DNA from: an uncultured Spirochaetota bacterium
Lineage (GTDB): Bacteria; Spirochaetota; Spirochaetia; SZUA-6; Fen-1364
NCBI GenBank assembly: GCA_963820525.1
Contig: CAWGAA010000001.1
Location: 800,001 to 864,000, forward strand
Length of the DNA: 64,000 nt
Direction of reading: 5' to 3'
The notes under the pieces were generated by a model. The model made no database searches, was not told the origin of the DNA, and saw only the letters and a list, made by a program, of their open reading frames with translations. The translations under genes were made by a program, and so were the position numbers. This document shows, one piece after another, positions 2,622 through 22,545 of this stretch; the stretch's first letter is position 1, and each line of letters starts with the position of its first letter.

Positions 2622-2736
2622 TTAGGAATAAAGTATTATCTCTTTCTGAAGAAGGATATGAAAATGATCCTTCAATAATTACTGCAAAAATATTGACGAA
2701 AAATCACAGATAAAGATATTAGTAAAAAAAGAAAGC

Positions 2737-4508: not shown

Positions 4509-4563
4509 CTAAGATATATGCTTTGATCCGAACTGACTTCCATTTCATCAAAGGAGGATAAAT

Positions 4564-5115
4564 ATGCCTTCAAGAGATGATTTCCTTCGAGAATATTTCC
4601 TACAAACCCGACGCGAGATTGACGCGGAAAAGTCTTCTAGAGATCAAATATTAAATTTCGTTATCATATCGCTTGGCGCAATCGGCTTTGCAATTTTTCA
4701 AAGCAGCAATATATTGTCAAATCCACATTCCATAGCAGTTGAATCATCATTGTTAGTTTTTATTACGTCCTTATTTTGGCTACGGCGAAAGAAACTTCAA
4801 CAGATATCAGACAGATGGATTGTTTTGGAGGGGCTGCTACATACAAGAATTAGATTCTTGCCTATAGAAAATAGTCTAGAGACTATTGTTCTTCAAGGCT
4901 TAAAATCTTTCAAATATTCCATTAAAGATTTTATTCTTTGTATTTGCGTTTCTTGTCCTATATATGCTGTTATTGTTTTTTCTTTGACAACCTGGATATC
5001 ACTTCCAACAAATATACTTATTACTGTCGGCATTATTCTTTTTCATGCCTCAATCTTATGGTATATCCTGATTTATCGCCTTTCTTATAAAAGAATCTAT
5101 AATAAATCAAATTGA
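4564..5115 (+). CDS. Hypothetical multi-pass membrane protein (cassette gene)
   Basis: RBS AAGGAGG; about 4 hydrophobic segments; AT-rich; followed by attC. Confidence 0.8.
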   Translation: MPSRDDFLREYFLQTRREIDAEKSSRDQILNFVIISLGAIGFAIFQSSNILSNPHSIAVESSLLVFITSLFWLRRKKLQQISDRWIVLEGLLHTRIRFLPIENSLETIVLQGLKSFKYSIKDFILCICVSCPIYAVIVFSLTTWISLPTNILITVGIILFHASILWYILIYRLSYKRIYNKSN

Positions 5116-5160
5116 TGTTAAGATCCGCCGCATAACATGCTGTTGGAGTTGACCGCCTAG

Positions 5161-6901
5161 CCCGCATTTCTCACAAATAGATACAAAAAGGCCTTTCACT
5201 CTGGTATAATTGCTTTGCCACAAACAGAATATACAAGGAATGAAAGGCCAAACGATGCAAACAGACTGTACTCCATCCTTATTCAGCTTTCAAGACCTCG
5301 GAGAGAAAAAGGTCGTCGCTAACTTCGATGGGGGCACGATCAGCTCAGATGCCGGCGCGCTTATTCTCAGAGAGCTTGAGCAGGCCACGGGATTCATAAA
5401 GGCGTTTGCTGACTGCTTTACCGACTACCGCGAGAAAGGCTATATCGAACACACGGTTGAGGAATTGATCAGCCAAAGAGTATTCGGCATATGCCTTGGC
5501 TACGAAGACCTCAACGATCATGACCGGCTGAGAAAAGATCCCGTTCTTGCCGCCGTGTGCGGGAAACTGGATGTGAGCGGGGAAAACAGACGGCAGAACC
5601 GGGATAAGGGAAACGCTCTTGCCGGAAAGAGCACCCTGAACCGTTTAGAGACAAGCGGCGGGACGAGTCTATTCACACACCGGTACAAGAAAATCACGGT
5701 CAACCATACTATGGTGGAGATGTTCCTGGTGAATGCCTTTCTGGACTCCTTCCAGCAGCCCCCCGCGGAAATCGTGCTTGATCTTGATGCCACCGACGAT
5801 CCCGTGCATGGGGAGCAGGAAGGCAGGTTCTTCCATGGCTACTACGATTGCTACTGCTACCTGCCGCTGTACATCTTCTGCGGCGACCATCTCTTGTGCG
5901 CAAAGTTGCGCCCTTCGAATATAGATGCCAGCGCGGGCGCCGAGGTGGAGTTGGCCAGAATCGTGGCCCAGATCCGGGAGCGGTGGCCTGATGTGCGCAT
6001 TATTGCACGGGCAGACAGCGGGTTCTGCCGTGAAGCGATCATGAGCTGGTGCGAGGGAAACGACGTGGATTTCCTGTTCGGAATCGCGAAAAACCAGCGT
6101 TTGTTGCGCAAGATCCGTCGGCAACTATCCGAATCCAGGCGGCAGTGCATATCCACGGGGCTGCCGCAGCGAAGATACGCCGAGTTGATGTACCGCACGA
6201 AGAAGACCTGGTCGAAAAGCAGGCGCGTTGTTGCCAAAGCGGAGTACCTGCTCAAGGGGGAGAACCCGCGGTTTGTCGTCACCTCCCTCCCTCAGGACCG
6301 GTTCCCTGCTCAAGCACTCTATGAGGATCTATACTGCGCCCGAGGGGACATGGAAAACCGTATCAAGGAACAACAACTCTACCTTTTCGCGGACCGGACC
6401 AGCTCCGCGACGATGAGGGCAAACCAGCTGCGGTTGTGGTTTTCCTCCGTGGCATACCTGATCATGAGCGCGTTGCGAAGGATTGCCTTGAAGGGTACGG
6501 AGCTTGCCACTGCGCAGTGTGACACGATTCGGCTGAAGGTGTTGAAGATCGGCGCGCAGGTCCGTCTGAGCGTACGTCGCATCTATGTGAGCTTCGCAAG
6601 CGGCTATCCCTACCAAGAGCTCTTCCGTCAGGCGATCTATCGAATCAGAACGGCTGTATTTCAGACAGGGTAGCTGAACTACCCACTCGAGGCATAAGCT
6701 CAGCGGGATCCTTATGCCCTGAGGTCCACTTCTGTGGACAGTTCAAGACGTTTTTCACGGAATGTGGCATGCAGGAGATCTTGAAACATCTGAAAAGTGG
6801 GTTTCGGAGTCTCCCGCAGCTTTGAAGATTCATCCCAATAGTACCGAAGCACATTCTATGCGTTCTTGAGATTCAGCTACGCTATTTGTGAGAAATGTGG
6901 G
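5161..6901 (+). mobile_element. IS1380-family IS, copy 2
   Basis: Terminal IRs and 4 bp CTAG duplication (5157-5160, 6902-6905). Confidence 0.92.
5255..6673 (+). CDS. IS1380-family transposase
   Basis: Same protein as 2996-4414. Confidence 0.92.
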   Translation: MQTDCTPSLFSFQDLGEKKVVANFDGGTISSDAGALILRELEQATGFIKAFADCFTDYREKGYIEHTVEELISQRVFGICLGYEDLNDHDRLRKDPVLAAVCGKLDVSGENRRQNRDKGNALAGKSTLNRLETSGGTSLFTHRYKKITVNHTMVEMFLVNAFLDSFQQPPAEIVLDLDATDDPVHGEQEGRFFHGYYDCYCYLPLYIFCGDHLLCAKLRPSNIDASAGAEVELARIVAQIRERWPDVRIIARADSGFCREAIMSWCEGNDVDFLFGIAKNQRLLRKIRRQLSESRRQCISTGLPQRRYAELMYRTKKTWSKSRRVVAKAEYLLKGENPRFVVTSLPQDRFPAQALYEDLYCARGDMENRIKEQQLYLFADRTSSATMRANQLRLWFSSVAYLIMSALRRIALKGTELATAQCDTIRLKVLKIGAQVRLSVRRIYVSFASGYPYQELFRQAIYRIRTAVFQTG

Positions 6902-6984
6902 CTAGGCTACGCGCTGTGACCACTAACTATGCGCGTTGAAGCCTTTGTACTTGGATGATTCGGGGCGGCAACTCAACAGCGTCG

Positions 6985-7275
6985 TTATCTCCATCTAGAT
7001 TTATATTGATTAGCAAATAAGCAACGAATTATCAATTCAAGAATATTTGATAAGACGTTTTTCAATATTTTGCTTTCCCATGATGGCGTTGGCATTGGGC
7101 GGGAAGGATGGCGGTGTTGTACTAGTTTGCCTGCTTGTTTTTAGGTTCAACACACTGCGCGTCACCTTGGCTTATTGTCACCGATTACACTATTGGGCTC
7201 GGATCAAGCTCCTTTAATTGATTCGATTGCTCTTTTTCTGCTTTCCTCAACGCCATCATACCGGATGGAGATAAC
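6985..7275 (+). ncRNA. ORF-less cassette A (candidate structured RNA 7080-7259)
   Basis: Lies between two attC; 12 bp closing stem ATGATGGCGTTG/CAACGCCATCAT plus two inner hairpins; member of a 7-copy family. Confidence 0.55.
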
Positions 7276-7382
7276 ATGTCGTTGCAGCTGACCGCCCAAG
7301 CTACGCGCCGTTATTCGAAACTACGCGCGCTCAGGTATTTCCTCTTTTTGAGGCGGGGCGGCAGCTGAACTCCTTGTTGTGC
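7269..7382 (+). repeat. attC site 4
   Basis: AGATAAC ATGTCGTTGCAGCTGACCGCCC...GGGCGGCAGCTGAACTCCTT GTTGTGC. Confidence 0.9.
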
Positions 7383-7463
7383 GGGCTCTACGGCTCTGTG
7401 GGGGCGGCACCTTTCGTGAATGCTCGAGTGGTCATCGACCGTCCCTTCCCGAGGGAGGTAATC

Positions 7464-7988
7464 ATGATACGTCAGTCGCGGCCTGTTGATTTCGATGCGA
7501 TCTACACGATCATCAACAATGCAGCAATTGCCTACAAAGGTATCATTCCAGACGACAGATGGCACGATCCCTATATGACTCGGGCGGAGCTGCATGAGCA
7601 AATTGACGGCGGCGTAAAGTTCTCCTGCTACTGTGAAGATGATGAGGTTCTTGGCGTAATGGGGATCCAGGACAAGAATGACGTCTTTCTAATACGGCAT
7701 GCATATGTTCTTACAACCAGCCGGAACAAGGGAATTGGAACAAAGCTCCTAAAGGAACTAACACGCAACTCGGAAAAACCTGTTTTGATCGGAACCTGGA
7801 AAGCCGCAACATGGGCAATTGGCTTCTATCTTAAGAATGATTTCAAGCTTGTCACGGAAGAAGAGAAGGGAGTTCTGTTGAGGAAGTACTGGAGTATTCC
7901 GGAAAGGCAAGTTGAAACCTCAGTGGTTCTTGCAGATGGAAAGTATGAAAAGGCAAAAGCCAAGCTCTTATCGCCAGGTTCAGGCTGA
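7464..7988 (+). CDS. GNAT family N-acetyltransferase (cassette gene)
   Basis: RBS GGAGG; acetyl-CoA motif A YVLTTSRNKGIGTKLL; AIGFYLKNDF. Confidence 0.88.
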   Translation: MIRQSRPVDFDAIYTIINNAAIAYKGIIPDDRWHDPYMTRAELHEQIDGGVKFSCYCEDDEVLGVMGIQDKNDVFLIRHAYVLTTSRNKGIGTKLLKELTRNSEKPVLIGTWKAATWAIGFYLKNDFKLVTEEEKGVLLRKYWSIPERQVETSVVLADGKYEKAKAKLLSPGSG

Positions 7989-8063
7989 AATGACCTTAGC
8001 AGGCATGATCGAATAGCCCTATCTATGTGGACATCGCCGTAGGATCAGGGCTTAAGGAGAGCC

Positions 8064-8179
8064 GCACAACAAGTCGTTGAAGCCGACCCCTTGACATCCG
8101 GCTGAAAGTGGGGCAGCGGATTCGTAAAAGCCGTCACGGTTGATCTGATGCGGCGGGGCGGCTTAACTCCATGTTACAC
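8064..8179 (+). repeat. attC site 5 (divergent type)
   Basis: GCACAAC AAGTCGTTGAAGCCGACCCC...GGGGCGGCTTAACTCCAT GTTACAC. Confidence 0.85.
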
Positions 8180-8264
8180 CCACCCAAAGCTCTTCACTTA
8201 TTGATATCTAATTTATTGCAAAGTAGATTCAAATACTTTTCTATCTTAAAGAAGGGGGTTTTAC

Positions 8265-8801
8265 ATGAAACGTACTCTTGCTGGTCTTTGTCTTTTACTC
8301 ACTGTTTTTACTGGATGTGCAACAATGAAAGAGAGAGAAAATTCGAGTTCCTCTTTTATAATTGCATATTTTAAGCCTCCTGAAGGAGATAGATTTGGAG
8401 GTGGTGATATTCGTCCTTTTGGACAAGTTATTGCCGCGCCTTTACAATATAGTTCTTTAGATGAAGGTTATTATTATGCAGCAAATGTCTCTCCAGGAAA
8501 GTATTACATTCAATCCGTAGACATGTTCTCCCTTTTAGGAAGAAAGACAAAGTATTATTTTGGAACAGTACAGATAGGTGGGTATGAGCAATCATCATTT
8601 ACTGTTGGATCTAACGAAGTTAAATTTCTTGGAGCTTTTACTTTTAAAGAAACCGGCAAAGTAGACATTTTCGGTGTACACGAATCAAAGATTGTTATGG
8701 ATAATAATATAACCGCCAAGGACTGCATTAAATATATTCTTAACAAGATAACGGCTGCTACCTGGAAACAAAGACTTACTGAAGAATTGAATAGATTATA
8801 A
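8265..8801 (+). CDS. Hypothetical lipoprotein (cassette gene)
   Basis: Signal peptide with lipobox FTGC. Confidence 0.8.
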   Translation: MKRTLAGLCLLLTVFTGCATMKERENSSSSFIIAYFKPPEGDRFGGGDIRPFGQVIAAPLQYSSLDEGYYYAANVSPGKYYIQSVDMFSLLGRKTKYYFGTVQIGGYEQSSFTVGSNEVKFLGAFTFKETGKVDIFGVHESKIVMDNNITAKDCIKYILNKITAATWKQRLTEELNRL

Positions 8802-8903
8802 AATCCTCATGTACTCTTTTCCTTTAGCTCTATTTCTATATAAATTATGACTCAAACCCCAAGATAATTAGAATTATTGAAAATCTGGTTTTTACTTGGT
8901 GGG

Positions 8904-9989
8904 CCTGAATTCAACCTCGAAGTGCAACGATTCTTATTTTTCATGATACACCTCCTGGGGCGTTCTGTAGCCGTGCCGTTTTCTAGGCCTTGAGTTTAGG
9001 CTAAAGGCAATCTGCTCGCATAGAGCTTGAGTGACATCCCTCATGCAGGTTTTCTTTGGAAGATACTGACGGATCAAACCGTTTAGGTTCTCGTTGCTGC
9101 CTCGCTCCCAGGAATGATAAGGCGTTGCAAAGTAGCATTTCAGTTCGGAATGATCCTCCAGGGTCCTGTAGTCATGGAATTCTGTACCGTTGTCCAAGGT
9201 GAGTGTCTTGAAGTTGGCTACGTTCTCCCTAATAGCCGGCAGTGCTGCCTCTGTTACTGAGGCTGCTGTTCTTGAGCTCATTTTCCTTATGATAGCAAAT
9301 CCCGACTTTCGTTCCACCAGAGTGAGGATGCAGTGATGAAGGTCCCTGCCCATGACGGTGTCGCCCTCCCAATGACCCAATTCTTTACGAGTTTCAACCT
9401 CTGGAGGCCTCGTTGAAATATGGCGTTTTCCTGGGAGAATTCCTCTTGAATCCCTTGAATTGTAACGTTTTCGCCGCAGTTTCGGCATGATTCGAAGGTT
9501 CTTAAATAGCGTTCCTCCATGTTTCTTATCGTTCAGGATGTACTTGTAGATGGTCTCGTGACTGATTGTGAATGATCCATTCTTCTTCTGGTAAGCAGAT
9601 ATCTGTTCAGGGCTCCATTTCTCTTTCAAAAGAACAGTTACTTGCTGCATTTGTTCTGGGCTGAAGCGCGAACCGCGCCTTTCACGTCGCCGTCTTGCAG
9701 TTGAATAGCTTTGGGCAAGCTCAGCTCGGTACCTCAAGTCATGGTTAGTTCGGTTTCGATGAAGTTCCCTGCTGATCGTGCTAGCTGAGCGACCTAGCTC
9801 ACGTGCAATGTCAGCTTTAGATCTTCGGCTTACTAAAAAAGCTGTTATGGTGTATCTTTCTTCTCGAGAGAGTTGGTGATAGTTATTCATGTATGAATCC
9901 CCTTTCTTGGCGGAAAATGGAGGCATACAATAATATCTCAGCTCTCTCATTTTTAATCCATATCGTTGCGCTTACTATTTGAACCTGCG
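8904..9989 (-). mobile_element. IS30-family IS, copy 1
   Basis: 28 bp imperfect IRs ending ..GCAACGAT; 3 bp GGG duplication; inserted in the attC R'' box. Confidence 0.9.
8934..9890 (-). CDS. IS30-family transposase
   Basis: LGHWEGDTV, TLTLDNGTEF, PYHSWERGSNENLNGLIRQYLPK. Confidence 0.95.
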   Translation of the reverse strand: MNNYHQLSREERYTITAFLVSRRSKADIARELGRSASTISRELHRNRTNHDLRYRAELAQSYSTARRRRERRGSRFSPEQMQQVTVLLKEKWSPEQISAYQKKNGSFTISHETIYKYILNDKKHGGTLFKNLRIMPKLRRKRYNSRDSRGILPGKRHISTRPPEVETRKELGHWEGDTVMGRDLHHCILTLVERKSGFAIIRKMSSRTAASVTEAALPAIRENVANFKTLTLDNGTEFHDYRTLEDHSELKCYFATPYHSWERGSNENLNGLIRQYLPKKTCMRDVTQALCEQIAFSLNSRPRKRHGYRTPQEVYHEK

Positions 9990-9991
9990 GG

Positions 9992-10107
9992 GTGTAACAT
10001 GCTGTTGGAGTTGACCGCCTAGGCTACGCTTCGTTACCAATAACTACGCGCGTTGAAGCCTTTGTACTTGTATGATTCGGGGCGGCAACTCAACAGCGTC
10101 GTTATAT
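9992..10107 (+). repeat. attC site 6
   Basis: GTGTAAC...GTTATAT with the family core. Confidence 0.9.
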
Positions 10108-10394
10108 CCAATCTAGATTTATATTGATTATCGAATAGGCAACGAATTAGTAATTCAATAAAAAGAGATAATACGTGTTTCAATAGCTTGTTTAACCATG
10201 ATGGCGTTGGCATTGCTCTGGAAGGATGGCGGTGTTGTACTAATGTTGCTTGCTTGCTCTTAGTTTCAATACACTGCACGTCACCGTGGCTTAATGGTCA
10301 ACGATTTCATTATAGGGCTCGGATCAAGCTCTTTCTCTTGAAACAACAACTCTTTTCTGTTGTCCTCAACGCCATCATACTGGATGGATATAAC
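10102..10394 (+). ncRNA. ORF-less cassette B (candidate structured RNA 10198-10378)
   Basis: Same conserved stems as cassette A. Confidence 0.55.
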
Positions 10395-10502
10395 ATGCTG
10401 TTGGAGTTGTCCGCCTAGGCTACGCGTCGTTACTTATAGCTACGTTTGCTAGGGTTCCTTCGGTTGCTGATTCGGGGCGGCAACTCAACAGCGTCGTTAT
10501 CT
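10388..10502 (+). repeat. attC site 7
   Basis: ATATAAC...GTTATCT. Confidence 0.9.
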
Positions 10503-10787
10503 CCATCTAGATTTATATTGATTAGCAAATAGGCGACAAATTCTTAATTCAAGAATATTGGATAAGACGTTTTTCAATAGCTTGCTTTCCCATGATGGCG
10601 TTGGCATTGAGCGGGAAGGATGGCGGTGTTGTACTAGTTTGCCTGCTTGTTTTTAGGTTCAATACACTGCTCGTCACCTTGGCTTATTGTCACCGATTAC
10701 ACTATAGGGCTCGGATCAAGTTCTTTTAATTGATTCGATTGCTCTTTTTCTGCTTTCCTCAACGCCATCATACTGGATGTAGATAAC
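10497..10787 (+). ncRNA. ORF-less cassette C (candidate structured RNA 10592-10771)
   Basis: Close relative of cassette A. Confidence 0.55.
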
Positions 10788-10893
10788 ATGTCGTTGCAGC
10801 TGACCGCCCAAGCTACGCATCGTCACTTAAAACTACGCGCGCTCAGGTATTTCTTTTTTTGATGCGGGGCGGCAGCTGAACTCCTCGTTATCT
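10781..10893 (+). repeat. attC site 8
   Basis: AGATAAC...GTTATCT, GCAGCTG subtype. Confidence 0.9.
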
Positions 10894-10904
10894 CTCCCTA
10901 AGAC

Positions 10905-10933
10905 TTGACTGTTGTGCATATTTTATGCATCAT
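10905..10933 (+). promoter_or_regulatory. Putative sigma70 promoter of vapBC with palindromic operator
   Basis: TTGACT-17-CATCAT, 7 nt before ATG; TGCATATTTTATGCA palindrome. Confidence 0.55.
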
Positions 10934-10940
10934 TGTGCAT

Positions 10941-11141
10941 ATGAGAACTACTCTTAACATCGACCCTACTCTCCTTAGAGAGGCAACAAGACTAACAGGG
11001 ATATCCGAAAAGACTTCCCTTGTCCGTATGGGCCTTCAGGCCCTGATCTCCAAAGAAAGTTCTAAGCGTTTGGCTGAGCTTGGCGGAACTGAAAAGAGTC
11101 TTCGTTCTATCCCAAGAAGACGACCTAAGAAGACAGCATGA
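10941..11141 (+). CDS. vapB: VapB-type antitoxin (ribbon-helix-helix)
   Basis: MRTTLNIDPTLLREATRLTG; overlaps the PIN toxin start. Confidence 0.85.
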   Translation: MRTTLNIDPTLLREATRLTGISEKTSLVRMGLQALISKESSKRLAELGGTEKSLRSIPRRRPKKTA

Positions 11142-11494
11142 TCCTAGTTGATACTTCTGTTTGGATAGATCATTTTCGAAATGACAATGCAGAGCTGCGC
11201 AAGTTATTAAACAACAATGAAGTTATGACTCACCCTTTTATTATTGGTGAACTTGCTTGCGGACTCATACAAAATAGATCAGAAATACTTAACCTTCTGG
11301 CCGAGTTGCCTGCTGTTATAACGGCAGATCATCAGGAAGTGCTAAAGCTCATCGAATCAAAGAAACTCTATGGTTCTGGAATTGGATTGATTGATGCACA
11401 TTTAATTGCATCAGCGCTAATAACCAAAGTTGGAATCTTCACTCTTGATAAACCTTTGGCAAAAGCAACTTCATATCTTGGAATAAACCAATAA
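11138..11494 (+). CDS. vapC: VapC PIN-domain toxin
   Basis: MILVDTSVWIDH, IGELACG, IDAHLIASA, TLDK. Confidence 0.92.
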   Translation: MILVDTSVWIDHFRNDNAELRKLLNNNEVMTHPFIIGELACGLIQNRSEILNLLAELPAVITADHQEVLKLIESKKLYGSGIGLIDAHLIASALITKVGIFTLDKPLAKATSYLGINQ

Positions 11495-11640
11495 ATTTCA
11501 TAGTTATCATAGGATGTTTCATTCAACTGTTGAGAATCTCTATATTCAGTATCCTCATAGAAGGTTATATTGACCCGTTTGGAATAAGTCATGCTTGGAT
11601 ATCAGTTTTCCAGCACATAAAACGAATTAATGAAAGGGAG

Positions 11641-11756
11641 AGATAACATGCTGTTGGAGTTGACCCCTTAGCCTACGTTTTGAAAGTGTAGCATGTGTTG
11701 CTAAACCGCCACTACCCTGCTTCGGGCGGCGGGGCAACTCAACAGCGTTGTTATCT
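11641..11756 (+). repeat. attC site 9
   Basis: AGATAAC..GAGTTGACCCC...GGGGCAACTCAACAGCGTT GTTATCT. Confidence 0.9.
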
Positions 11757-11939
11757 CCCCCAAGGGAGCATTCAAGTGCGATTGTCAAGACCTCGCACAA
11801 TTAGCGATTTCGGCATCTTGCACCTGTCGACAGGCTGACCAGTCTGCAGATTGGCGATTTTAATTTGCCTATGTTCTTACTGACCCAAATCGATTGAAGT
11901 ACGCTTAGGCATTGCACCTTAGCGTTCAGGGAGAATCCG

Positions 11940-12467
11940 ATGAAGTTTGATCTGACCCTAAACTGGCAGTCCGTGTTGACCCTTGCCGCCTTGCTTTCAT
12001 CATGGACAATTCCCCTTTTGCTCGACTTTCTTCGGAGACGAAGGCAGTCGGATATTGTCCGCAAGAGTATCTCTTTATATCTTGATTCACTCGAGATCAA
12101 AGCTAGGCTTTGGCTGCGCTTCTATTTTGACGGGGACGTAAAACTTCCCAAAGGAAGGAGATCGTTTGAATACACAAACAAGCAAAATCACGACGCGTTG
12201 GAGGACCTGTTCCGTTCAAGTGATCTCGGCAACTTGGAGAAGGAGGAGTTGCTGAAATTCGTCCAGTACTTTAAGGCCTCACAGGAAATGAGGTCCCAGG
12301 AAGACTTCAAAAAATACGTTTCCCGGATAGGTGACGAATCGCTTAGGCAAGTGTTTCCGCAGGGCCCCCACTTTCAGAATATACTAAGGACTACCGCCAA
12401 GGCAATGTCTGCTTCTCATAGGTTGGCCGCTCGACAAGCCGGGGCCACAGTTCCTCGTCGCAGGTAG
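11940..12467 (+). CDS. Hypothetical protein with N-terminal membrane anchor (cassette gene)
   Basis: RBS GGGAG; single ORF between attC 9 and 10. Confidence 0.7.
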   Translation: MKFDLTLNWQSVLTLAALLSSWTIPLLLDFLRRRRQSDIVRKSISLYLDSLEIKARLWLRFYFDGDVKLPKGRRSFEYTNKQNHDALEDLFRSSDLGNLEKEELLKFVQYFKASQEMRSQEDFKKYVSRIGDESLRQVFPQGPHFQNILRTTAKAMSASHRLAARQAGATVPRRR

Positions 12468-12524
12468 CGCATTCATAGATGCCGCGATTCTATCGATCAT
12501 CGTGGGTCAATTACGAAATGCGGG

Positions 12525-12640
12525 AGATAACATGCTGTTGGAGTTGACCGCCTAGGCTATGCTTCGTAACCAATAGCTACGCGCATTAAAGCATTTGTAC
12601 TTGGATGATTCGGGGCGGCAACTCAACAGCGTCGTTATGA
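12525..12640 (+). repeat. attC site 10
   Basis: AGATAAC...GTTATGA. Confidence 0.9.
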
Positions 12641-12796
12641 CGCCTCAAGATTTGGCCGATTGAGGCAAACGGACTGGAATGCCTCGGGGAAGAGGGTCAG
12701 GCGTCCATGCCTGACCCTCTTCCCCTCATTGGTATCATTCGAGACCTCTATCTCCGAACTATAATCAAATATACCGAATCGCCTTGTGAGGGCTCC

Positions 12797-12825
12797 TTGA
12801 CTATACATACCAATAATGGTATGTT
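12797..12825 (+). promoter_or_regulatory. Putative sigma70 promoter with operator of the HigBA-like TA
   Basis: TTGACT-17-TATGTT; palindrome ACATACCA-ATAA-TGGTATGT. Confidence 0.65.
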
Positions 12826-12830
12826 TCGAC

Positions 12831-13163
12831 ATGCAATATGAAGTCGTATTGTTGGAGCCTGCAACGGACTTCCTACGCAACCTCGAGGGGAAGCTGCAAG
12901 CAAAAGCGTTCCGATCAATCGAACTTCTAGGGCATTTTGGAACACAATTGATCATGCCGCACTCCAAAAAGCTCAGCGGATACGATCTGTGGGAATTGCG
13001 GGTTCGACATGCAGGCATGATCTGCCGACTATTCTATTTCCACGATCGGGATAGGATCTTTGTTGTGACTTCTGGATATGTTAAGAAGAGTGACAGGACT
13101 AATCCAAAGGAGATAAAGAGGGCACTCCGGCTTAAGATGGAGCACCTTGGAGGGACCACATAA
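12831..13163 (+). CDS. RelE/ParE (HigB/gp49-like) toxin
   Basis: MPHSKKLSGYDLWELRV, RLFYF, GYVKKSDRTNPKEI. Confidence 0.85.
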   Translation: MQYEVVLLEPATDFLRNLEGKLQAKAFRSIELLGHFGTQLIMPHSKKLSGYDLWELRVRHAGMICRLFYFHDRDRIFVVTSGYVKKSDRTNPKEIKRALRLKMEHLGGTT

Positions 13164-13456
13164 TGAAGCAGACTCGATATGAGGATTTGCTCAACCGTCA
13201 ATTGAAGAACCCTCAGTTCCGGAAAGAATATGAAGCGTTAGAGGGTGAGTTCACCCTGGCAAAAGAAATAATCGCACTTCGTATCAAGAATAGACTTACG
13301 CAGAAACAACTCGCACAGCAAATCGGAACCTCCCAGCCCGCCATTGCTCGGATTGAATCTGGTAGCTACCGGAATGTCTCGCTCTCATTTCTTAGGCGGA
13401 TCGCAGATGCACTTGGAGCCGTGCCGGAAATACATCTGAAAAAGAAAGGTGCATGA
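13163..13456 (+). CDS. Xre-HTH antitoxin (HigA-like)
   Basis: LTQKQLAQQIGTSQPAIARIESG. Confidence 0.88.
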   Translation: MKQTRYEDLLNRQLKNPQFRKEYEALEGEFTLAKEIIALRIKNRLTQKQLAQQIGTSQPAIARIESGSYRNVSLSFLRRIADALGAVPEIHLKKKGA

Positions 13457-13642
13457 GCGCTATTACAACCGTGAGCTGAATAGCTTTCCACGCCCTCGCC
13501 ATCCCTGGCTCGGGCGCATGTCCTGATAGATAGCGGAAGCGCTGACAATTTGTAGACGATCCATATTGGAGTCGTCATAACATGCTGTTGGAGTTGACCG
13601 CCTAGGCTATGCGTCGCTTAGCTACAGCTTGTCGGGTAATTG

Positions 13643-14029
13643 TTAGCTCTCCGGAGCCCGCTTACCGTGGATACGCGGGGTTGGCGTCTTTCTCGCGGGG
13701 GACGGTAGCTTTTTAAGAAGGCGATCGGTGACGCGCAACGACATCCTCTCCATTTGAGCGATGATTCTGTCCAGTTCGCGGCCGGTGGCAACCCAGACGG
13801 CGAGAAGGTCGGCCTGTTCGCGCGTCAGGCGGACTGTGACGGTTTTTCCATCCACCTTGCGGGTCCACTGGTAGTAGGGACCGTGAAGGCGGGGCGGAGA
13901 AGCTTGGCAGGCGCAGCCGGGCTTGCCGCAGGCCATGAAGCGTTTCAGCAAGGTGCCACGGCGGAAATAGCCGACTCGGCTGAGGGCGCGCTGGAGCTGC
14001 TGGTAGTTTTGCGGAAGATCGGTTTTCAT
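13643..14029 (-). CDS. DUF6788-like Cys/His protein carried by the IS
   Basis: RGTL..RFMACGKPGCAC....HGPYYQWTRKVDGKTVT. Confidence 0.7.
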   Translation of the reverse strand: MKTDLPQNYQQLQRALSRVGYFRRGTLLKRFMACGKPGCACQASPPRLHGPYYQWTRKVDGKTVTVRLTREQADLLAVWVATGRELDRIIAQMERMSLRVTDRLLKKLPSPARKTPTPRIHGKRAPES

Positions 14030-14236
14030 AGAAATATATCTTGACAGAAAACTGTCTACAGTTATAATACTGTTAGATATGTTGCCCGTCAAGCTTCCCC
14101 GGCGTTGGTTTTTCTCCCGGATCCTCGCTTCGATGTGCGTGTGCGTCTTTCTCGGCCTGGGCATCTTGATCTTCTCCAGCGCCCCCTCCATGGCAGCCGC
14201 CGATAGAGCAATCGTTCCCCAGGAGGTCCCTCGTCC

Positions 14237-15628
14237 ATGCAAACCACTTCTGCCAGTGCCAAGCGCCAACCCGCTCTGATTCCCAGGTCTATGCGCCCGA
14301 CCATCTCCATCGCGGAGGACCACAGGCTGGTCCAAATGACCGACACCCTGGACTGGACAGAAATGGAGGAGCAAGCCCAGCAGATACGATCCGCCAAGCT
14401 CAAGAACGCCGCTGGGCGGCCGCCGCACCTGCGCGCCTTGCTGGGAGCTATGCTGCTGATGGCCACCCGAAAGCTGACATACCGGGAGGCCGAGGACTTG
14501 ATCTGCTACTACGCCCCAGCGCGCTACTTGTGCGGGCTGACCGAAACGGAGTGGACCCCGGACTTCACCACCATCCAGGACTTCACCGAACTGATGGGCG
14601 AGCAGGGGATCAAGCTCATCAATCAATGCGTGGTGCAAATGGCGGTGAAACAAAAGTTGGCAGATCCCAAGACACTGGTGGCCGACACCACAGCGCAGGA
14701 AGCGGCGATCCCCTATCCCAACGAGATGGGGCTCATGGCCGGCTTTCTGACCTCGGTGGCTGCCGCAACCCGAAAAGTTGGCCGAGCGCTGAAGGGATTC
14801 GTGCAGGAGACGGTGAGTCAATTCGAGGCGGCCAAGAAGAAGGGGCGAGAGTACCGCCTGTTCGCCAAGACCAAGGAGAGCAAGGATCGGGTGATGGGGC
14901 AGATGATCGCCATCGTCAAGAAGCTCAACGAGCATCTGAGCAAGGCGCTGGGCGCCCCTGCCGCACAGTGGGAAAAGCTACGCAAGCATGCAATTGTGGC
15001 CAAAAGCAAGCTGGTTCAGTTGCAGGAAACGATGAGCAAACTGATCCCGCAGATCCGCTACTGGATTCGCACGGGCTGCGTGGCCAGCGGCAAGATCATC
15101 AGCCTGCATATCCCGCAGCTCTACAGCATCGTACGCGGCAAAGTGGGCAAATCGGTGGAGTTTGGGCTGAGCTGGGGCATCAGGCGACTGGCGGGGGGGT
15201 ACCTGCTGGCCACGCTGGCCCCGAATCGCCGCGAGTTACAGGACACGAAGTTCGCGGTGCGAGCGGTCAAAGACCACATCGCGCTCTTTGGCAAGGCGCC
15301 GCTGGCTTATGCCTACGACCGTGGTGGATACAGCGCGGAGAATGTCTCCACCTTGAAGAAGTTGGGGGTCAAGGATGTGGGACTGGCCCCCCGTGGACGT
15401 ACGCAGTGGTCGGTAAGCGGGCCGGTGCGCGACCGGCTGGTCAGAGAGAGGGCAATGGTGGAGGCGGGAATCGGCACCATCAAGAGCCCGAGATACGGGT
15501 TCAATCGTCCAGCTGCTCGTTCGGAGGCCATGATGGGAGCGTGTGGGCAGCGCGCTGTGTTGGGATTCAACACCAACAAGCTGATCCGCGAACTTGCCGG
15601 GCGAAAGGGGATGACGCTGAACGGCTAA
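14237..15628 (+). CDS. DDE transposase (IS5-like)
   Basis: RBS AGGAGG; VADTTAQEAAIPYP, GKVGKSVEFG, AYDRGG, RAMVEAGIGTIK. Confidence 0.85.
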   Translation: MQTTSASAKRQPALIPRSMRPTISIAEDHRLVQMTDTLDWTEMEEQAQQIRSAKLKNAAGRPPHLRALLGAMLLMATRKLTYREAEDLICYYAPARYLCGLTETEWTPDFTTIQDFTELMGEQGIKLINQCVVQMAVKQKLADPKTLVADTTAQEAAIPYPNEMGLMAGFLTSVAAATRKVGRALKGFVQETVSQFEAAKKKGREYRLFAKTKESKDRVMGQMIAIVKKLNEHLSKALGAPAAQWEKLRKHAIVAKSKLVQLQETMSKLIPQIRYWIRTGCVASGKIISLHIPQLYSIVRGKVGKSVEFGLSWGIRRLAGGYLLATLAPNRRELQDTKFAVRAVKDHIALFGKAPLAYAYDRGGYSAENVSTLKKLGVKDVGLAPRGRTQWSVSGPVRDRLVRERAMVEAGIGTIKSPRYGFNRPAARSEAMMGACGQRAVLGFNTNKLIRELAGRKGMTLNG

Positions 15629-15933
15629 CGGAATACGGGACGCCTGGTCACGAGACTGACAGTGCACCAGCGGGGTACGCACACAAGACACACAGCGCAC
15701 CGGAAGGCGCGACATAGGTCCGCGGCCCGTCGAACACCGAGCCAACGGGCGCCTGAATTACCCGACAAACTGTAGCTATAGCTACGCTCATTGAAGCCTT
15801 TGTACTTGGATGATTCGGGGCGGCAACTCAACAGCGTCGTTATCTTGCCATAGTAAATACCCAGTTGTGCATTTTTCATGCCATTGCATTTGTTTTAAGA
15901 ATTCATCACAACATTAAGCATGATTACCATATG

Positions 15934-15962
15934 TTGACACTGTGCGCACAATGGGGTATATT
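15934..15962 (+). promoter_or_regulatory. Putative sigma70 promoter with operator of the BrnT-like TA
   Basis: TTGACA-17-TATATT; TGTGCGCACA palindrome in the spacer. Confidence 0.7.
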
Positions 15963-15970
15963 CCTTATTG

Positions 15971-16249
15971 ATGCAGTTCGCCTTTGACAAGGAGAAGAAT
16001 GACCTTCTTTATAAACGGCGTGGGGTAACTTTTCCCATGGTAATTGAGGCGATTGCAGATAAGGGAATTCTATTGAATTTTGATCACCCAAATCAATTGA
16101 AATATCCAAACCAAAAGGTACTTGTTGTTGATTTGGAAGGATATGCATACTGCGTACCTTATATTATTCAAGGAACTACTTGGTTCTTGAAAACGATCTA
16201 TCCAAGCAGACGTTTCAAGTACCTAATCGAAGGAGAAACCAATGGATAG
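15971..16249 (+). CDS. BrnT-like toxin
   Basis: FAFDKEKNDLLYKRRGVTF, FLKTIYPSRR. Confidence 0.8.
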   Translation: MQFAFDKEKNDLLYKRRGVTFPMVIEAIADKGILLNFDHPNQLKYPNQKVLVVDLEGYAYCVPYIIQGTTWFLKTIYPSRRFKYLIEGETNG

Positions 16250-16544
16250 ATATAATCCGAAATACATTGACCGTGAAGAGAAAGATCTCATGCAAGACAT
16301 TGACAAAATAGATCTCCGTAAGGTTAGAAAGCCGACCCAAAAGGTACAAGGACAACTCAGGAGAGCTGCAAAGAGGCACCTAGAAAAAGAATTGAAAATG
16401 AATATTAGAATTGACCCCTATGAATTATCAAAGATTAAAGAAAAGGCAGAAATGGAAGGATTAAAATACCAAAGCCTCGTAAAGAGCGTACTACACAAAT
16501 ACATTACTGGCCAATTGATTGAAAAAGGGAAAAAAGCTGTATAG
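16242..16544 (+). CDS. BrnA/CopG-like antitoxin
   Basis: MNIRID..LSKIKEKAEMEGLKYQSLVKSVLHKY. Confidence 0.8.
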   Translation: MDRYNPKYIDREEKDLMQDIDKIDLRKVRKPTQKVQGQLRRAAKRHLEKELKMNIRIDPYELSKIKEKAEMEGLKYQSLVKSVLHKYITGQLIEKGKKAV

Positions 16545-16586
16545 GAATTATGGCTAAAATCTTATTATTAAAATAGATAAATGGCA

Positions 16587-16700
16587 AGATAACATGCGGT
16601 TGGAGTTGTCCGCCTAGGCTACGTTCATCAACAGTAAGCTAAGTTTGCTAGGGTCCTTCGGTTGCTGATTCGGGGCGGCAACTCAACCGCGTCGTTATCT
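16587..16700 (+). repeat. attC site 12
   Basis: AGATAAC ATGCGGTTGG...CAACCGCGTC GTTATCT (compensatory change in the stem). Confidence 0.9.
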
Positions 16701-16984
16701 CCATCTAGATTTATATTGATTAGCAATGAAGTTAAGAATTATTAATTAAATAATCTTGGATAAGACGCTTTTCAATTTCATGTTTGCCCATGATGGCGTT
16801 GGCCTTTCTCTGGAAGGATGGCGGTGTTGTACTAGGTTGCACGCTTGTTTTTAGTTTCAATGCATGGCACGTCACCTTGGCTTATTATCACCGATTACAT
16901 TCAACGGCTCTAATCAAGCTCTTTCAATTGATTCGCTAGATCTTTTCTGCTTTCCTCAACGCCATCATACTGGATGGAGATAAC
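16695..16984 (+). ncRNA. ORF-less cassette D (candidate structured RNA 16790-16968)
   Basis: Family stems conserved. Confidence 0.55.
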
Positions 16985-17091
16985 ATGTCGTTGCAGCTGA
17001 CCGCCCAAGCTACGCGTCGTCACTTGAAACTATGCGTGCTCAGCTATTTCCTTTTTTTGAGGCGGGGCGGCAGCTGAACTCCTTGTTATAT
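16978..17091 (+). repeat. attC site 13
   Basis: AGATAAC...GTTATAT, GCAGCTG subtype. Confidence 0.9.
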
Positions 17092-17374
17092 CCATCTAGA
17101 TTTATATTGATTAGCGAATAGACAACGAATTATTAATTCAATAATAGAAGATAAGACGCTTTTCAATAGCTTTTTGCCCATGATGGCGTTGACATTGCTC
17201 CGTAAGGATGGCGGTGTTGTACTACATTGCTTGCTTTTCTTTAGTTTCAATACATGGCACGTCACCTCGTCTTGCCAACACCGATTGCATTCAACGGCTC
17301 GGATCAAGCTCCTTCAATTGATTCGATAGACCTTTTCTGCTTTCCTCAACGCCATCATACTGGATGGATATAAC
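17086..17374 (+). ncRNA. ORF-less cassette E (candidate structured RNA 17180-17358)
   Basis: Family stems conserved. Confidence 0.55.
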
Positions 17375-17482
17375 ATGCTGTTGGAGTTGTCCGCCTAGGC
17401 TACGCGTCGTTACTTATAGCTACGTTTCCTAGGGTTCCTTCGGTTGCTGATTCGGGGCGGCAACTCAACAGCGTCGTTATAT
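17368..17482 (+). repeat. attC site 14
   Basis: ATATAAC...GTTATAT. Confidence 0.9.
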
Positions 17483-17769
17483 CCAATCTAGATTTATATT
17501 GATTATCGAATAGGCAACGAATTAGTAATTCAATAAAAAGAGATAATACGTGTTTCAATAGCTTGTTTAACCATGATGGCGTTGGCATTGCTCTGGAAGG
17601 ATGGCGGTGTTGTACTAATGTTGCTTGCTTGCTCTTAGTTTCAATACACTGCACGTCACCGTGGCTTAATGGTCAACGATTTCATTATAGGGCTCGGATC
17701 AAGCTCTTTCTCTTGAAACAACAACTCTTTTCTGTTGTCCTCAACGCCATCATACTGGATGGATATAAC
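17477..17769 (+). ncRNA. ORF-less cassette F (apparent copy of B; candidate RNA 17573-17753)
   Basis: Sequence matches 10102-10394. Confidence 0.55.
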
Positions 17770-17877
17770 ATGCTGTTGGAGTTGTCCGCCTAGGCTACGC
17801 GTCGTTACTTATAGCTACGTTTGCTAGGGTTCCTTCGGTTGCTGATTCGGGGCGGCAACTCAACAGCGTCGTTATCT
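17763..17877 (+). repeat. attC site 15
   Basis: ATATAAC...GTTATCT, matches attC 7. Confidence 0.9.
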
Positions 17878-18155
17878 CCATCTAGATTTATATTGATTAG
17901 CAATGAAGTTAAGAATTATTAATTAAATAATCTTGGATAAGACGCTTTTCAATTTCATGTTTGCCCATGATGGCGTTGGCCTTTCTCTGGAAGGATGGCG
18001 GTGTTGTACTAGGTTGCACGCTTGTTTTTAGTTTCAATGCATGGCACGTCACCTTGGCTTATTATCACCGATTACATTCAACGGCTCGAATCAAGCTCTT
18101 TCAATTGATTCGCTAGATCTTTTCTGCTTTCCTCAACGCCATCATACTGGATGGA
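17872..18155 (+). ncRNA. ORF-less cassette G (near copy of D; candidate RNA 17967-18145), ended by IS30
   Basis: Differs from D at GGCTCGAATC vs GGCTCTAATC. Confidence 0.55.
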
Positions 18156-19241
18156 CCTGAATTCAACCTCGAAGTGCAACGATTCTTATTTTTCATGATA
18201 CACCTCCTGGGGCGTTCTGTAGCCGTGCCGTTTTCTAGGCCTTGAGTTTAGGCTAAAGGCAATCTGCTCGCATAGAGCTTGAGTGACATCCCTCATGCAG
18301 GTTTTCTTTGGAAGATACTGACGGATCAAACCGTTTAGGTTCTCGTTGCTGCCTCGCTCCCAGGAATGATAAGGCGTTGCAAAGTAGCATTTCAGTTCGG
18401 AATGATCCTCCAGGGTCCTGTAGTCATGGAATTCTGTACCGTTGTCCAAGGTGAGTGTCTTGAAGTTGGCTACGTTCTCCCTAATAGCCGGCAGTGCTGC
18501 CTCTGTTACTGAGGCTGCTGTTCTTGAGCTCATTTTCCTTATGATAGCAAATCCCGACTTTCGTTCCACCAGAGTGAGGATGCAGTGATGAAGGTCCCTG
18601 CCCATGACGGTGTCGCCCTCCCAATGACCCAATTCTTTACGAGTTTCAACCTCTGGAGGCCTCGTTGAAATATGGCGTTTTCCTGGGAGAATTCCTCTTG
18701 AATCCCTTGAATTGTAACGTTTTCGCCGCAGTTTCGGCATGATTCGAAGGTTCTTAAATAGCGTTCCTCCATGTTTCTTATCGTTCAGGATGTACTTGTA
18801 GATGGTCTCGTGACTGATTGTGAATGATCCATTCTTCTTCTGGTAAGCAGATATCTGTTCAGGGCTCCATTTCTCTTTCAAAAGAACAGTTACTTGCTGC
18901 ATTTGTTCTGGGCTGAAGCGCGAACCGCGCCTTTCACGTCGCCGTCTTGCAGTTGAATAGCTTTGGGCAAGCTCAGCTCGGTACCTCAAGTCATGGTTAG
19001 TTCGGTTTCGATGAAGTTCCCTGCTGATCGTGCTAGCTGAGCGACCTAGCTCACGTGCAATGTCAGCTTTAGATCTTCGGCTTACTAAAAAAGCTGTTAT
19101 GGTGTATCTTTCTTCTCGAGAGAGTTGGTGATAGTTATTCATGTATGAATCCCCTTTCTTGGCGGAAAATGGAGGCATACAATAATATCTCAGCTCTCTC
19201 ATTTTTAATCCATATCGTTGCGCTTACTATTTGAACCTGCG
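18156..19241 (-). mobile_element. IS30-family IS, copy 2
   Basis: Matches copy 1; inserted at an R'' box. Confidence 0.9.
18186..19142 (-). CDS. IS30-family transposase
   Basis: Same protein as copy 1. Confidence 0.95.
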   Translation of the reverse strand: MNNYHQLSREERYTITAFLVSRRSKADIARELGRSASTISRELHRNRTNHDLRYRAELAQSYSTARRRRERRGSRFSPEQMQQVTVLLKEKWSPEQISAYQKKNGSFTISHETIYKYILNDKKHGGTLFKNLRIMPKLRRKRYNSRDSRGILPGKRHISTRPPEVETRKELGHWEGDTVMGRDLHHCILTLVERKSGFAIIRKMSSRTAASVTEAALPAIRENVANFKTLTLDNGTEFHDYRTLEDHSELKCYFATPYHSWERGSNENLNGLIRQYLPKKTCMRDVTQALCEQIAFSLNSRPRKRHGYRTPQEVYHEK

Positions 19242-19243
19242 GA

Positions 19244-19359
19244 GTCTAACATGCTGTTGGAGTTGACCGCCTAGGCTACGCTTCGCTACATATAGCTACG
19301 CGCGTTGAAGTCTTTGTACTTGGATGATTCGGGGCGGCAACTCAACAGCGTCGTTATAC
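19244..19359 (+). repeat. attC site 16
   Basis: GTCTAAC...GTTATAC. Confidence 0.9.
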
Positions 19360-19457
19360 GGGTCTATTCTTTGGGGCAAGGCTTATTCTGATTAGGGAAC
19401 TTCTGGTTTCATTTGTGATCAAAGCCTGATCTACCTGCTTACATTAAAATGATCCAA

Positions 19458-19487
19458 TTGACAATCTTGAAAACACTCCACTATTAT
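19458..19487 (+). promoter_or_regulatory. Putative sigma70 promoter of the DUF4160/DUF2442 pair
   Basis: TTGACA-18-TATTAT, 5 nt before ATG. Confidence 0.6.
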
Positions 19488-19492
19488 ATGCT

Positions 19493-19753
19493 ATGCCTAC
19501 AATATGTCGTTTTTATGGCATCCTCATCCAGATGTATTTTGATGATCATAGTCCACCCCATTTTCATGTAGTATATAACGAATTCAAAGCCGTCATAGGC
19601 ATCAATGATTTTAGTATATTAGAAGGGGACCTACCGCCGAAAGCTCTTGGCTTAGTTATGGAATGGGCTAGAATACATAAGATTGAATTGCTGAAGGATT
19701 GGGAACTTGCTAAGAAGAAGCAATCCCTATTACCTATTGTTCCTTTAGAATAG
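19493..19753 (+). CDS. DUF4160 family protein (putative TA toxin)
   Basis: MPTICRFYGILIQMYFDDHSPPHFHV, LVMEWARIH. Confidence 0.88.
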   Translation: MPTICRFYGILIQMYFDDHSPPHFHVVYNEFKAVIGINDFSILEGDLPPKALGLVMEWARIHKIELLKDWELAKKKQSLLPIVPLE

Positions 19754-19762
19754 GAGTCTGTC

Positions 19763-20041
19763 ATGTATTTCGACATCGTTGATGCTGAATATATTAGAGA
19801 TTATGAAATCAAACTAAAATTCGCAGACGCTTCGGAAGGAACCGTTGATTTGTCATCCTATATAGATAAGGATACAGTTTTTAGAGCATTTCAAGATCTT
19901 GGCTATTTCAGAAACTTTCAAATAGAATATGGAACATTAGTCTGGGGACAAGGAGAGCTCGACCTTGCACCAGAGACTCTTTATACAATAGCAACTGGAA
20001 AACCGGTTAAGTTTCTTTCACAAAACAGGGCTATTTCATAA
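19763..20041 (+). CDS. DUF2442 family protein (putative TA antitoxin)
   Basis: IKLKFADASEGTVDL, GTLVW...LDLAPETLY. Confidence 0.88.
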   Translation: MYFDIVDAEYIRDYEIKLKFADASEGTVDLSSYIDKDTVFRAFQDLGYFRNFQIEYGTLVWGQGELDLAPETLYTIATGKPVKFLSQNRAIS

Positions 20042-20097
20042 ACTTATTTATTCAAGCTGCCTATTCTATCTGAACGAAATATCTGTTAAAGAGACCC

Positions 20098-20214
20098 GTA
20101 TAACATGCTGTTGTAGCAGACCGCTTGGACTACGCATCGTTACTGATAGCTACGCGTGTTAAAACCAATTGTACCTGGATGATGCGGCGCGGCTGCTCAA
20201 CCGCGTCGTTAGGC
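20098..20214 (+). repeat. attC site 17
   Basis: GTATAAC..AGCAGACCGC...GCGGCTGCTCAACCGCGTC GTTAGGC. Confidence 0.88.
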
Positions 20215-20261
20215 TCCTAATTCATTACTGCTTCAGCCTTCATATAAAAGGAGGTCAGGCT

Positions 20262-21383: not shown

Positions 21384-21457
21384 TGTTTTAAAGACCGCCA
21401 TATCACAAAGCATTAATGATTATTGATGTCCGAATACAAACAAAACTCAATTAGGAG

Positions 21458-22543: not shown

Positions 22544-22545
22544 AA

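Follow-up and report, generated by a model that had tools for sequence, protein, structure and literature searches.

Gene-less integron cassettes closed by a conserved inverted repeat in an uncultured Spirochaetota bacterium

Large chromosomal integrons are usually described as stockpiles of genes. A stretch of 64,000 nucleotides (nt) from an uncultured Spirochaetota bacterium (GenBank assembly GCA_963820525.1, contig CAWGAA010000001.1, here C1, positions 800001-864000; window position 1 = C1 800001), referred to below as the window, raises the question of what is kept, and why, in integron cassettes that hold no gene. An earlier note had listed seven homologous cassettes of this kind at window positions 6985, 10102, 10497, 16695, 17086, 17477 and 17872, and had proposed that each encodes a structured RNA of about 180 nt on the + strand. 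All seven cassettes were confirmed, and the true size of the family was found to be far above this list, with 66 copies genome-wide (47 distinct sequences). The 12-base-pair (bp) inverted repeat of the cassette is real and is its most constrained part. Our tentative reading is that of a self-propagating, passenger-less cassette in which this repeat acts in cis as a clamp.

Cassette layout and the conserved inverted repeat

All 66 copies are located on the + strand of C1 between 683,478 and 818,155, with none elsewhere in the genome, and they represent 37% of the 179 cassettes of one integron array. A family cassette consists of a body of ~292 bp and its own attC site of ~100 bp, and each copy in the window begins with the TT of the GTT core site. 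Copy 1 occupies 6985..7376 (body 6985-7276, followed by its attC up to the G of GTT at 7376), copy 2 10102..10496, copy 3 10497..10887, copy 4 16695..17085, copy 5 17086..17476 and copy 6 17477..17871, all on the + strand and all with body and own attC. Copy 7 (17872..18155, +) is truncated ahead of its attC by an IS30-like insertion sequence (IS) beginning at 18156. Copy 1 is identical to three copies elsewhere in the array and shares 95% identity with copy 3, while copies 2 and 6 are identical to each other and to three more in the array.

The layout described by the earlier note was reproduced in each window copy. The cassette opens with an AT-rich leader of ~95 nt (27% G+C; 6985..7079, +, in copy 1), which contains the palindrome GAATTAT(T/C)AATTC. 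It is followed by a unit of 178-182 nt bounded by the arms ATGATGGCGTTG and CAACGCCATCAT, which are exact in all seven window copies and form the closing 12-bp stem. The 5' arm ATGATGGCGTTG lies at 7080..7091 and again from 10198, 10592, 16790, 17180, 17573 and 17967; the 3' arm CAACGCCATCAT lies at 7248..7259 and again from 10367, 10760, 16957, 17347, 17742 and 18134. The own attC (~100 nt) begins ~13 nt past this unit.

The first 11-12 bases of the leader are complementary to the last bases of the cassette, and this outer complementarity, TTAT(C/A)TCCATC / GATGGA(G/T)ATAA, corresponds to the extended R'/R'' pairing of attC, which is ~12 bp long in this integron. In the alignment, the start and end of the cassette covary, TTATATCC occurring with GGATATAA and TTATCTCC with GGAGATAA; the exception is formed by the GGACATAA copies. 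The family thus shows an own 3'-terminal attC with inverted core sites (...AAC / GTT...) able to pair, an array beside intI and attI, and movement as body plus attC, and the earlier description of gene-less, mobile, amplified and diversified integron cassettes is supported. By eye, in two coding cassettes, the R'/R'' complementarity also seems to be ~10-14 bp, beyond the usual 7-bp core (window 7377-7392 with 8062-8076, and 8176-8190 with 9990-9999).

The conservation of the repeat was assessed against the rest of the cassette and against coding cassettes. A perfect long-range inverted repeat of 12-14 bp was present in 54 of 62 family cassettes, compared with a longest inverted repeat of 8-9 bp in 47 of 56 coding cassettes, which are themselves two to three times longer. 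Across 43 distinct sequences, no variation occurs in 9 of the 12 stem pairs and only five cells depart. A variant shared by at least two distinct copies was found in none of the 24 arm columns versus 130 of 241 columns elsewhere (Fisher p 4e-8), and runs of at least eight columns without a shared variant are restricted to the two arms and GTGTTGTA. In metagenome contigs aligned to window 6700-8100, none of the 40 best-supported of 150 differences falls in either arm.

These figures also bear on the possibility that the cassette is neutral and recently amplified, its uniformity being due to youth and gene conversion and its repeat being an inherited accident. Many copies are indeed identical or nearly so, the alignment is mosaic, and no homologue was found outside the lineage in the genomes searched. 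However, the variation is uneven, as distinct copies differ by up to ~20% and still have no shared variant in either arm. In addition, a 12-bp long-range repeat stands far above the background of the coding cassettes, and an unrelated second family, described below, has the same feature. A neutral origin is accordingly considered very unlikely.

A third strongly conserved block, GGATGGCGGTGTTGTA (7104..7119, +; alignment columns 131-138 without a shared variant), is a second, direct copy of the 5'-arm core GATGGCG, located 24 nt downstream of it in all copies. The 3' arm thus has two possible partners, the 5' arm or the GGATGGCGGTGTTGTA block. The three most conserved blocks of the cassette are these two direct copies and the inverted 3' arm, an arrangement of the motif GATGGCG(K)TG that might reflect double-stranded binding sites for IntI, a nucleoid protein or another recombinase. 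The second family also has three cores, of the form GCGCG, and each block of the first family contains GTTG, partly resembling GTTRRRY, the core-site consensus. Nevertheless, the motif is absent from the attI region, that of the second family is unrelated and without GTT, the blocks are not detected by the attC profile, and no candidate binding protein was identified. Protein-binding sites are therefore an improbable explanation, held at about the same low level as a neutral origin. The 180-nt unit as a whole was also considered as an attC-like site and was rejected, because the attC profile matches once per cassette and the GTT/AAC order of the unit is the reverse of that of attC.

Copying of single cassettes in the array

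The array belongs to a 141-kb sedentary chromosomal integron with 179 cassettes. Its integrase (IntI) gene is located at C1:682092-683030 on the - strand (TIGR02249, 410.7 bits; cut-off 265), just left of the first family copy. The first cassette starts at C1:683478, outside the window, and the cassette joined to attI is itself a member of the gene-less family. A profile made from the family's attC sites detected 179 attC sites in the array, all on the + strand and with one match per cassette. The distal end of the array occupies window 1..24375 (+), where the last attC ends. The G+C content is 60% in the genome, 44% in the array and 38% in the gene-less family. The cargo of the remaining cassettes is typical of integrons and includes GNAT acetyltransferases, hydrolases, numerous IS elements, and VapBC, MazE-PIN and HigB-like/HTH pairs.

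Copies with identical bodies (13 groups, 32 copies, 29 pairs) were compared in their flanks. The own attC was 100% identical in 26 of the 29 pairs, whereas the upstream attC of identical copies was just 0.61-0.92 identical, and the neighbouring bodies aligned at random level (0.52-0.61) unless the neighbour was a family member. In one exceptional pair, a block of two cassettes had been duplicated. Since the own attC is shared and the flanks are unrelated, the copying unit is exactly the body plus its own attC. Single cassettes were apparently copied by the integron integrase, and not by segmental duplication.

The order of duplicated cassettes pointed in the same direction. Nine cassettes, both coding and non-coding, with 99.7-100% identity link an attI-proximal block (cassettes 26-37; C1:699-708 kb, L031/L032) to a distal block (cassettes 162-172; window 7,000-18,000). 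The duplicates have the same orientation and a reversed order, with 30 of 36 pairs inverted (Kendall tau -0.67, p 0.013, for blocks picked after inspection of the data). This looks like last-in-first-out stacking at attI, because such an order results from serial insertion at one site and is not produced by duplication of a block. The density of the family is higher on the attI side, with 29 copies among the first 60 cassettes versus 18 among the last 59 (one-sided p 0.009). Its placement is otherwise random (28 adjacent family pairs versus 24 expected, p 0.13), and tandem runs reach six copies. Elsewhere in the array, a smaller set of cassettes is likewise found in reversed order (13, 15, 18 and 21 versus 115, 110, 109 and 108).

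A second gene-less family was found in the same array, outside the window, between C1:688,981 and 795,905 (L031:8977-9316, L031:12317-12639 and 34 more). It comprises 36 cassettes of 418-440 bp (27 distinct, in four subfamilies), has no conserved open reading frame (ORF), and shows no detectable homology to the first family (nhmmer E = 9). Its layout consists of an AT-rich leader followed by an invariant, G+C-rich inverted repeat of 9-11 bp, which closes ~165 nt and has the arms (T)GCGCGGGCC(A) and complement. The GCGCG core occurs three times, and the third copy, inside the unit, allows an alternative pairing. The start and end positions of these cassettes covary as well (CG 18 / UA 7 and CG 12 / UA 9). 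The two families together account for 102 of the 179 cassettes, or 57% of the array.

Recombination at attC uses folded single strands, and the recombinogenic attC strand is the bottom strand. When the bottom strand was folded as DNA, both attC hairpins, the end-to-end stem and the 12-bp stem all formed. We propose that the family is a non-autonomous cassette, which would have no passenger gene, would be mobilised in trans by IntI and would have spread via repeated excision and re-insertion at attI. The features conserved across copies would then be those required in cis for copying. The inverted repeat may act on the single-stranded form used in attC recombination, where it would, as a clamp, close off the AT-rich body in a domain of its own. 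The folding of attC would then meet no competition from the body, and the two flanking attC hairpins would be brought close together. Such an element would be to the integron what a miniature inverted-repeat transposable element (MITE) is to a transposase, and would not be a trans-acting structured RNA. The terminal repeats of non-autonomous transposons stay conserved by the same copying logic. As 66 redundant copies imply weak host selection on each copy, selection for being copied would better explain the uniform arms. We assign a probability of roughly 40% to this reading.

Several points weigh against it. The role of the clamp is what we infer from the above, and the effect of the repeat on recombination is a prediction. 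A mismatch in the 3' arm (CAACTCC) marks one variant that is present as two identical copies; this variant was thus copied once, which means that copying does not absolutely depend on a perfect stem. A mismatched arm is also seen in the first cassette at attI. Among paralogues, a recent origin combined with gene conversion can mimic constraint, and the alignment looks mosaic. The internal helix GTGTTG/CAAYRY varies almost solely by changes that keep G-U pairing on the + strand, and these become A-C mismatches on the bottom strand. Finally, the blocks used for the order test were chosen with the data in view, and the order and repeat context of the copies presuppose a correct assembly.

A wider claim can be made for both families, namely that gene-less cassettes are integron parasites in which a cis-acting, G+C-rich clamp evolved independently twice and raises their own excision and re-insertion. 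We regard this claim as plausible, though less likely than not.

Readings as RNA, promoter or small protein

According to the earlier note, each cassette would make a structured + strand RNA of ~180 nt closed by the 12-bp stem and acting as a regulator, decoy or defence RNA. The invariance of both arms of the closing stem, the orientation of every copy in the array direction and the same closed layout in an independent second family all count in favour of this proposal. Integron-borne small RNAs (sRNAs) also exist, an example being sRNA-Xcc1, as cited in a review (PMC8876359).

The proposed internal structure was examined by covariation, in tests of low power given that all the sequences are little-diverged paralogues from one genome. 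The structure pairs in 94.8% of cells versus a mean of 94.9% after shuffling of the 3' partners (43 distinct sequences). Pairs changing on both sides numbered 1 versus 2.4 in the shuffles, and the covariation score was 0.043 versus 0.045. Covariation among the paralogues of this genome thus did not exceed that of the shuffles. The consensus obtained with RNAalifold for the core comprises the closing stem, a 4-bp hairpin and a single long-range helix other than those proposed (covariation term -0.09); neither of the two proposed internal hairpins was retained in it.

The folding energies were in line with these results. The interior between the arms showed no excess stability over dinucleotide shuffles, the mean fold z in 24 of the 47 distinct copies being -0.63 for the + strand and -0.40 for the - strand. 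The whole unit, in one copy, had a fold z of -2.0 on the + strand and -3.8 on the - strand because of the closing stem, and it thus folds better on the strand opposite to the proposed RNA. The internal hairpins of the earlier note are accordingly not beyond chance.

The note had further stated that stem substitutions mostly keep pairing through G-U on the + strand. This holds for the GTGTTG/CAAYRY helix, with 69 cells of G-U type versus 2 of A-C type, and counts in favour of an RNA. It does not extend to the whole structure, in which 48 G-U, 32 A-C and 67 other mismatched cells were counted outside three constitutive G-U sites.

The expression of such an RNA was considered from promoter motifs and base composition. 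A sigma-70-like promoter on the + strand was found in 2 of the 47 distinct copies, both of them 5'-truncated, versus ~32% of shuffles, and the integrase end of the array is as much as 135 kb away from the distal copies. The + strand of the family is pyrimidine-rich and the - strand purine-rich, opposite to the coding cassettes. The (T-A)/(T+A) skew of the + strand, which is T-rich, is +0.29 in the family core and +0.24 in the second family, against -0.065 in coding cassettes. No match to Rfam was obtained at gathering score across the window, and at E up to 5 there were just two chance-level matches (E 2.8 and 4.2), in agreement with the earlier note, in which no named RNA family had been recognised. 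In summary, internal RNA structure is not supported by these tests, and a structured + strand RNA is regarded as unlikely.

The strand bias of the promoter motifs raises a different possibility, in which the cassettes are promoters firing antisense to the array, driving or silencing their neighbours or, from the first position, intI. Sigma-70-like matches were found on the - strand in 29 of the 47 distinct copies, and this is the purine-rich strand. A recurrent site with 9-10 of 12 matches and a 17-bp spacer (TTGAAA/TTAAAA ... TAGAAT/TATAAT) occurs in 22 copies, and another site, overlapping the 3' arm, in 19 copies; on the - strand, the two sites lie at cassette positions ~233-205 and ~298-270. 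ORF-less cassettes with promoter activity also have precedents (PMC6557892; PMC8876359).

On the other side, 35% of shuffles also yield a chance match on the - strand, and the copies cannot be counted as independent. No such site is present in 18 of the 47 distinct copies, including the first cassette at attI and a five-copy variant, and the A2 position of the -10 element is lost in a large subfamily (TTGAAT). The second family has no consistent promoter site (5 + and 4 - matches in 27 copies). A promoter module would have no reason to occur in tandem runs of up to six copies. The invariant repeat is also left unexplained, and a transcript from either predicted start would lack the 3' arm wholly or for the most part. 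A promoter function is thus about as unlikely as a structured RNA. A sigma-54 motif at TGGCAC was also considered and was rejected by eye for its wrong spacing and lack of conservation.

The coding potential of the copies was analysed with regard to a small protein or its decayed remnant, such as a type I toxin with a start codon hidden in the 12-bp stem. A + strand ORF starting from the ATGATG of the 5' arm reaches at least 45 codons in 29 of the 47 distinct copies (45-49 codons in 28 and 65 in one), and its product is hydrophobic with a basic tail. In 18 of the 47, one-base indels or stops shorten it to 21-40 codons, with no loss of conservation in the sequence downstream. Longer open frames of 51-96 amino acids (aa), with an upstream TTG start or read from stop to stop, exist in some copies, none of them conserved. 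On the - strand, a 36-codon ORF runs across the leader in about half of the copies.

Neither the ATGATG frame nor the - strand ORF had a coding signature. The variability by codon position of the ATGATG frame is flat (0.091/0.086/0.072), and the ratio of nonsynonymous to synonymous polymorphism (pN/pS) is 0.89 in frame versus 0.79 and 0.83 in the other two frames; for the - strand ORF it is 1.41. A Shine-Dalgarno sequence is absent ahead of the family ORF, whereas the neighbouring cassette genes have one. A Pfam search with five ORF translations at E up to 1 gave only two chance-level matches, and the 76-aa ORF had no homologue at E 0.001 or better among the 41-133-residue proteins of a large protein collection.

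The results showed that the family copies are not protein-coding. The claim that no + strand ORF is conserved is therefore upheld, with the qualification that the ATGATG ORF of at least 45 codons occurs in 29 of 47 copies without a coding signature. Consistent with this, a type I toxin-antitoxin system was rejected, because the small hydrophobic ORF is neither conserved nor under purifying selection by codon variability and pN/pS, and a protein or its remnant is the least credible of the explanations considered, with only a very slight chance of being correct. The findings also correspond to the description of non-coding cassettes by Boucher et al. (2006), with no protein match, conservation over the full length and no synonymous-site pattern; by the working cut-off of that study for an ORF-less cassette, no ORF >150 bp, the picture is mixed, with the ATGATG ORF at 45-49 codons in 28 copies, at 65 codons in one, and with the longer, non-conserved open frames of some copies.

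Related repeats, distribution and meaning

MITEs and repeats of the repetitive extragenic palindromic (REP) and enterobacterial repetitive intergenic consensus (ERIC) type are short, AT-rich and gene-less, have terminal or subterminal inverted repeats, and are amplified in trans to tens of copies. The family resembles them as a gene-less, AT-rich inverted-repeat element with conserved cis sites. Unlike MITEs, the family is mobilised at attC sites by IntI, has no target-site duplication around the 12-bp repeat and has no copy outside the array. An identity as a MITE was rejected for these reasons, because the 12-bp repeat is present but its flanks (..GCCC / ACTG..) are without duplication and all 66 copies are inside the cassettes of one array. 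The msr-msd RNA of retrons is a unit of 150-250 nt closed by an inverted repeat of ~12 bp, and the closed-unit design is similar here. In contrast to retrons, no reverse-transcriptase domain was found among 111 array ORFs at E 1e-5 or better, and there is no Rfam match.

The closest known cases are other integron cassettes. In Vibrio, non-coding cassettes make up 6-49% of the arrays, and one paralogous family, restricted to vibrios, reaches 45 copies in strain CMCP6 of V. vulnificus and 34 in strain YJ016; selfish elements or promoter/RNA functions were proposed for them (Boucher et al. 2006, PMC1382264). The Vibrio families are also gene-less and highly paralogous, with a normal attC, no codon-like substitutions and lineage-restricted homologues (PMC1382264). 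The present case differs, in a comparison by description only, in its 66 + 36 copies covering 57% of the array, and also in its host, its genome of 60% G+C and its relatives, whose assemblies are mostly fragmented.

In oral Treponema, ORF-less cassettes with promoter activity have been reported (Tansirichaiya et al. 2019, PMC6557892). The cassettes described here are likewise ORF-less, and about half of the copies have antisense sigma-70-like motifs; however, these motifs are predicted and not family-wide, and the abstract of that study describes neither a high copy number nor an inverted repeat. The sRNA-Xcc1 of Xanthomonas is an integron-borne sRNA (Chen et al. 2011, via review PMC8876359) and resembles the proposed RNA as a non-coding product of an integron cassette. 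It differs in that the family here has no Rfam match and is known from DNA alone. A search of full-text literature, with subscription journals mostly outside its range, returned nothing closer than the Vibrio, Treponema and Xanthomonas cases.

The distribution of the family was examined in genomes, plasmids, viruses and metagenomes. A blastn search with one copy gave no match in 40 relatives, and a covariance model of the core matched only its own genome and none of 91 other genomes of the order, in a search with stricter filters that scored at most 29 candidates per genome. Among 400 sampled genomes of the phylum, only AT-rich matches of 28-54 nt (E ~2e-4) were found in 5 genomes and were taken as chance. 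A strict arm pattern had no match in viral contigs, and blastn had none in plasmids. A loose arm-core pattern (two 10-nt cores with a variable gap) hit at least 110 loci in genome contigs, none of which was family-like by blastn; these were dismissed as chance, and the scan speaks neither for nor against copies in that collection.

In metagenome contigs, the strict pattern found one contig of 1011 bp, on which a near-identical copy is flanked by a PIN-domain cassette on one side and by another cassette on the other. Variants of the cassette also occur on short contigs from four metagenome studies, and two of these contigs contain the joint between tandem copies. On window 6700-8100, the contigs from these four metagenomes cover the cassette and not its left flank.

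Integron integrases are present in 17 of 24 relatives from the same taxonomic family, and the arrays use the same attC type. The array-side DNA of relatives contained cassettes of ~580-7,000 bp and no gene-less family, with many contigs ending right after intI. Since most assemblies of the relatives break at or near the array, absence of the family there cannot be claimed.

The genome has a second integron (IntI 448.6 bits, C1:1954228-1955157, also L170), with six attC sites of the same type within 9 kb to the right of its IntI. No member of either gene-less family was found in it.

The array also harbours several mobile elements. An IS30-like element (338-aa ORF with HTH_38 and rve domains) is present in 9 copies, three of them in the window (8904-9989, 18156-19241 and ~21,450-22,540) and six more in L035 and L036. 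Two insertions were inspected and lie at the same spot, immediately 5' of the R'' core in an attC, which suggests that the element targets attC edges. Two inverted copies of another IS, with a 487-aa DDE_Tnp_1_4 transposase, are located ~750 bp apart inside the array (window 2996-4459, -, and 5210-6673, +). ORFs of equal length (487 aa) occur further along the window at 26790-28253 and 49862-51325 and are known by ORF length alone.

Taken together, the family belongs to a known and still unexplained kind of repeat, the large family of paralogues among non-coding cassettes. It stands out by its copy number, by the clean evidence of copying and by a conserved repeat design common to two unrelated families. 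Gene-less paralogous cassettes fill a large share of some arrays, and their role has been open since at least 2006. The array analysed here is unusually clean in this regard, with 102 of 179 cassettes gene-less, exact breakpoints at the cassette borders, duplicates in last-in-first-out order and one sharp repeat to mutate. Whether the cassette is selfish or serves as a useful RNA or promoter is thus directly testable by standard integron recombination assays. If gene-less cassettes are integron parasites, over half of this 141-kb array would consist of self-copying units and not of stockpiled genes. If the clamp promotes copying, the cassette content of an array would reflect the fitness of the cassettes as well as that of the host.

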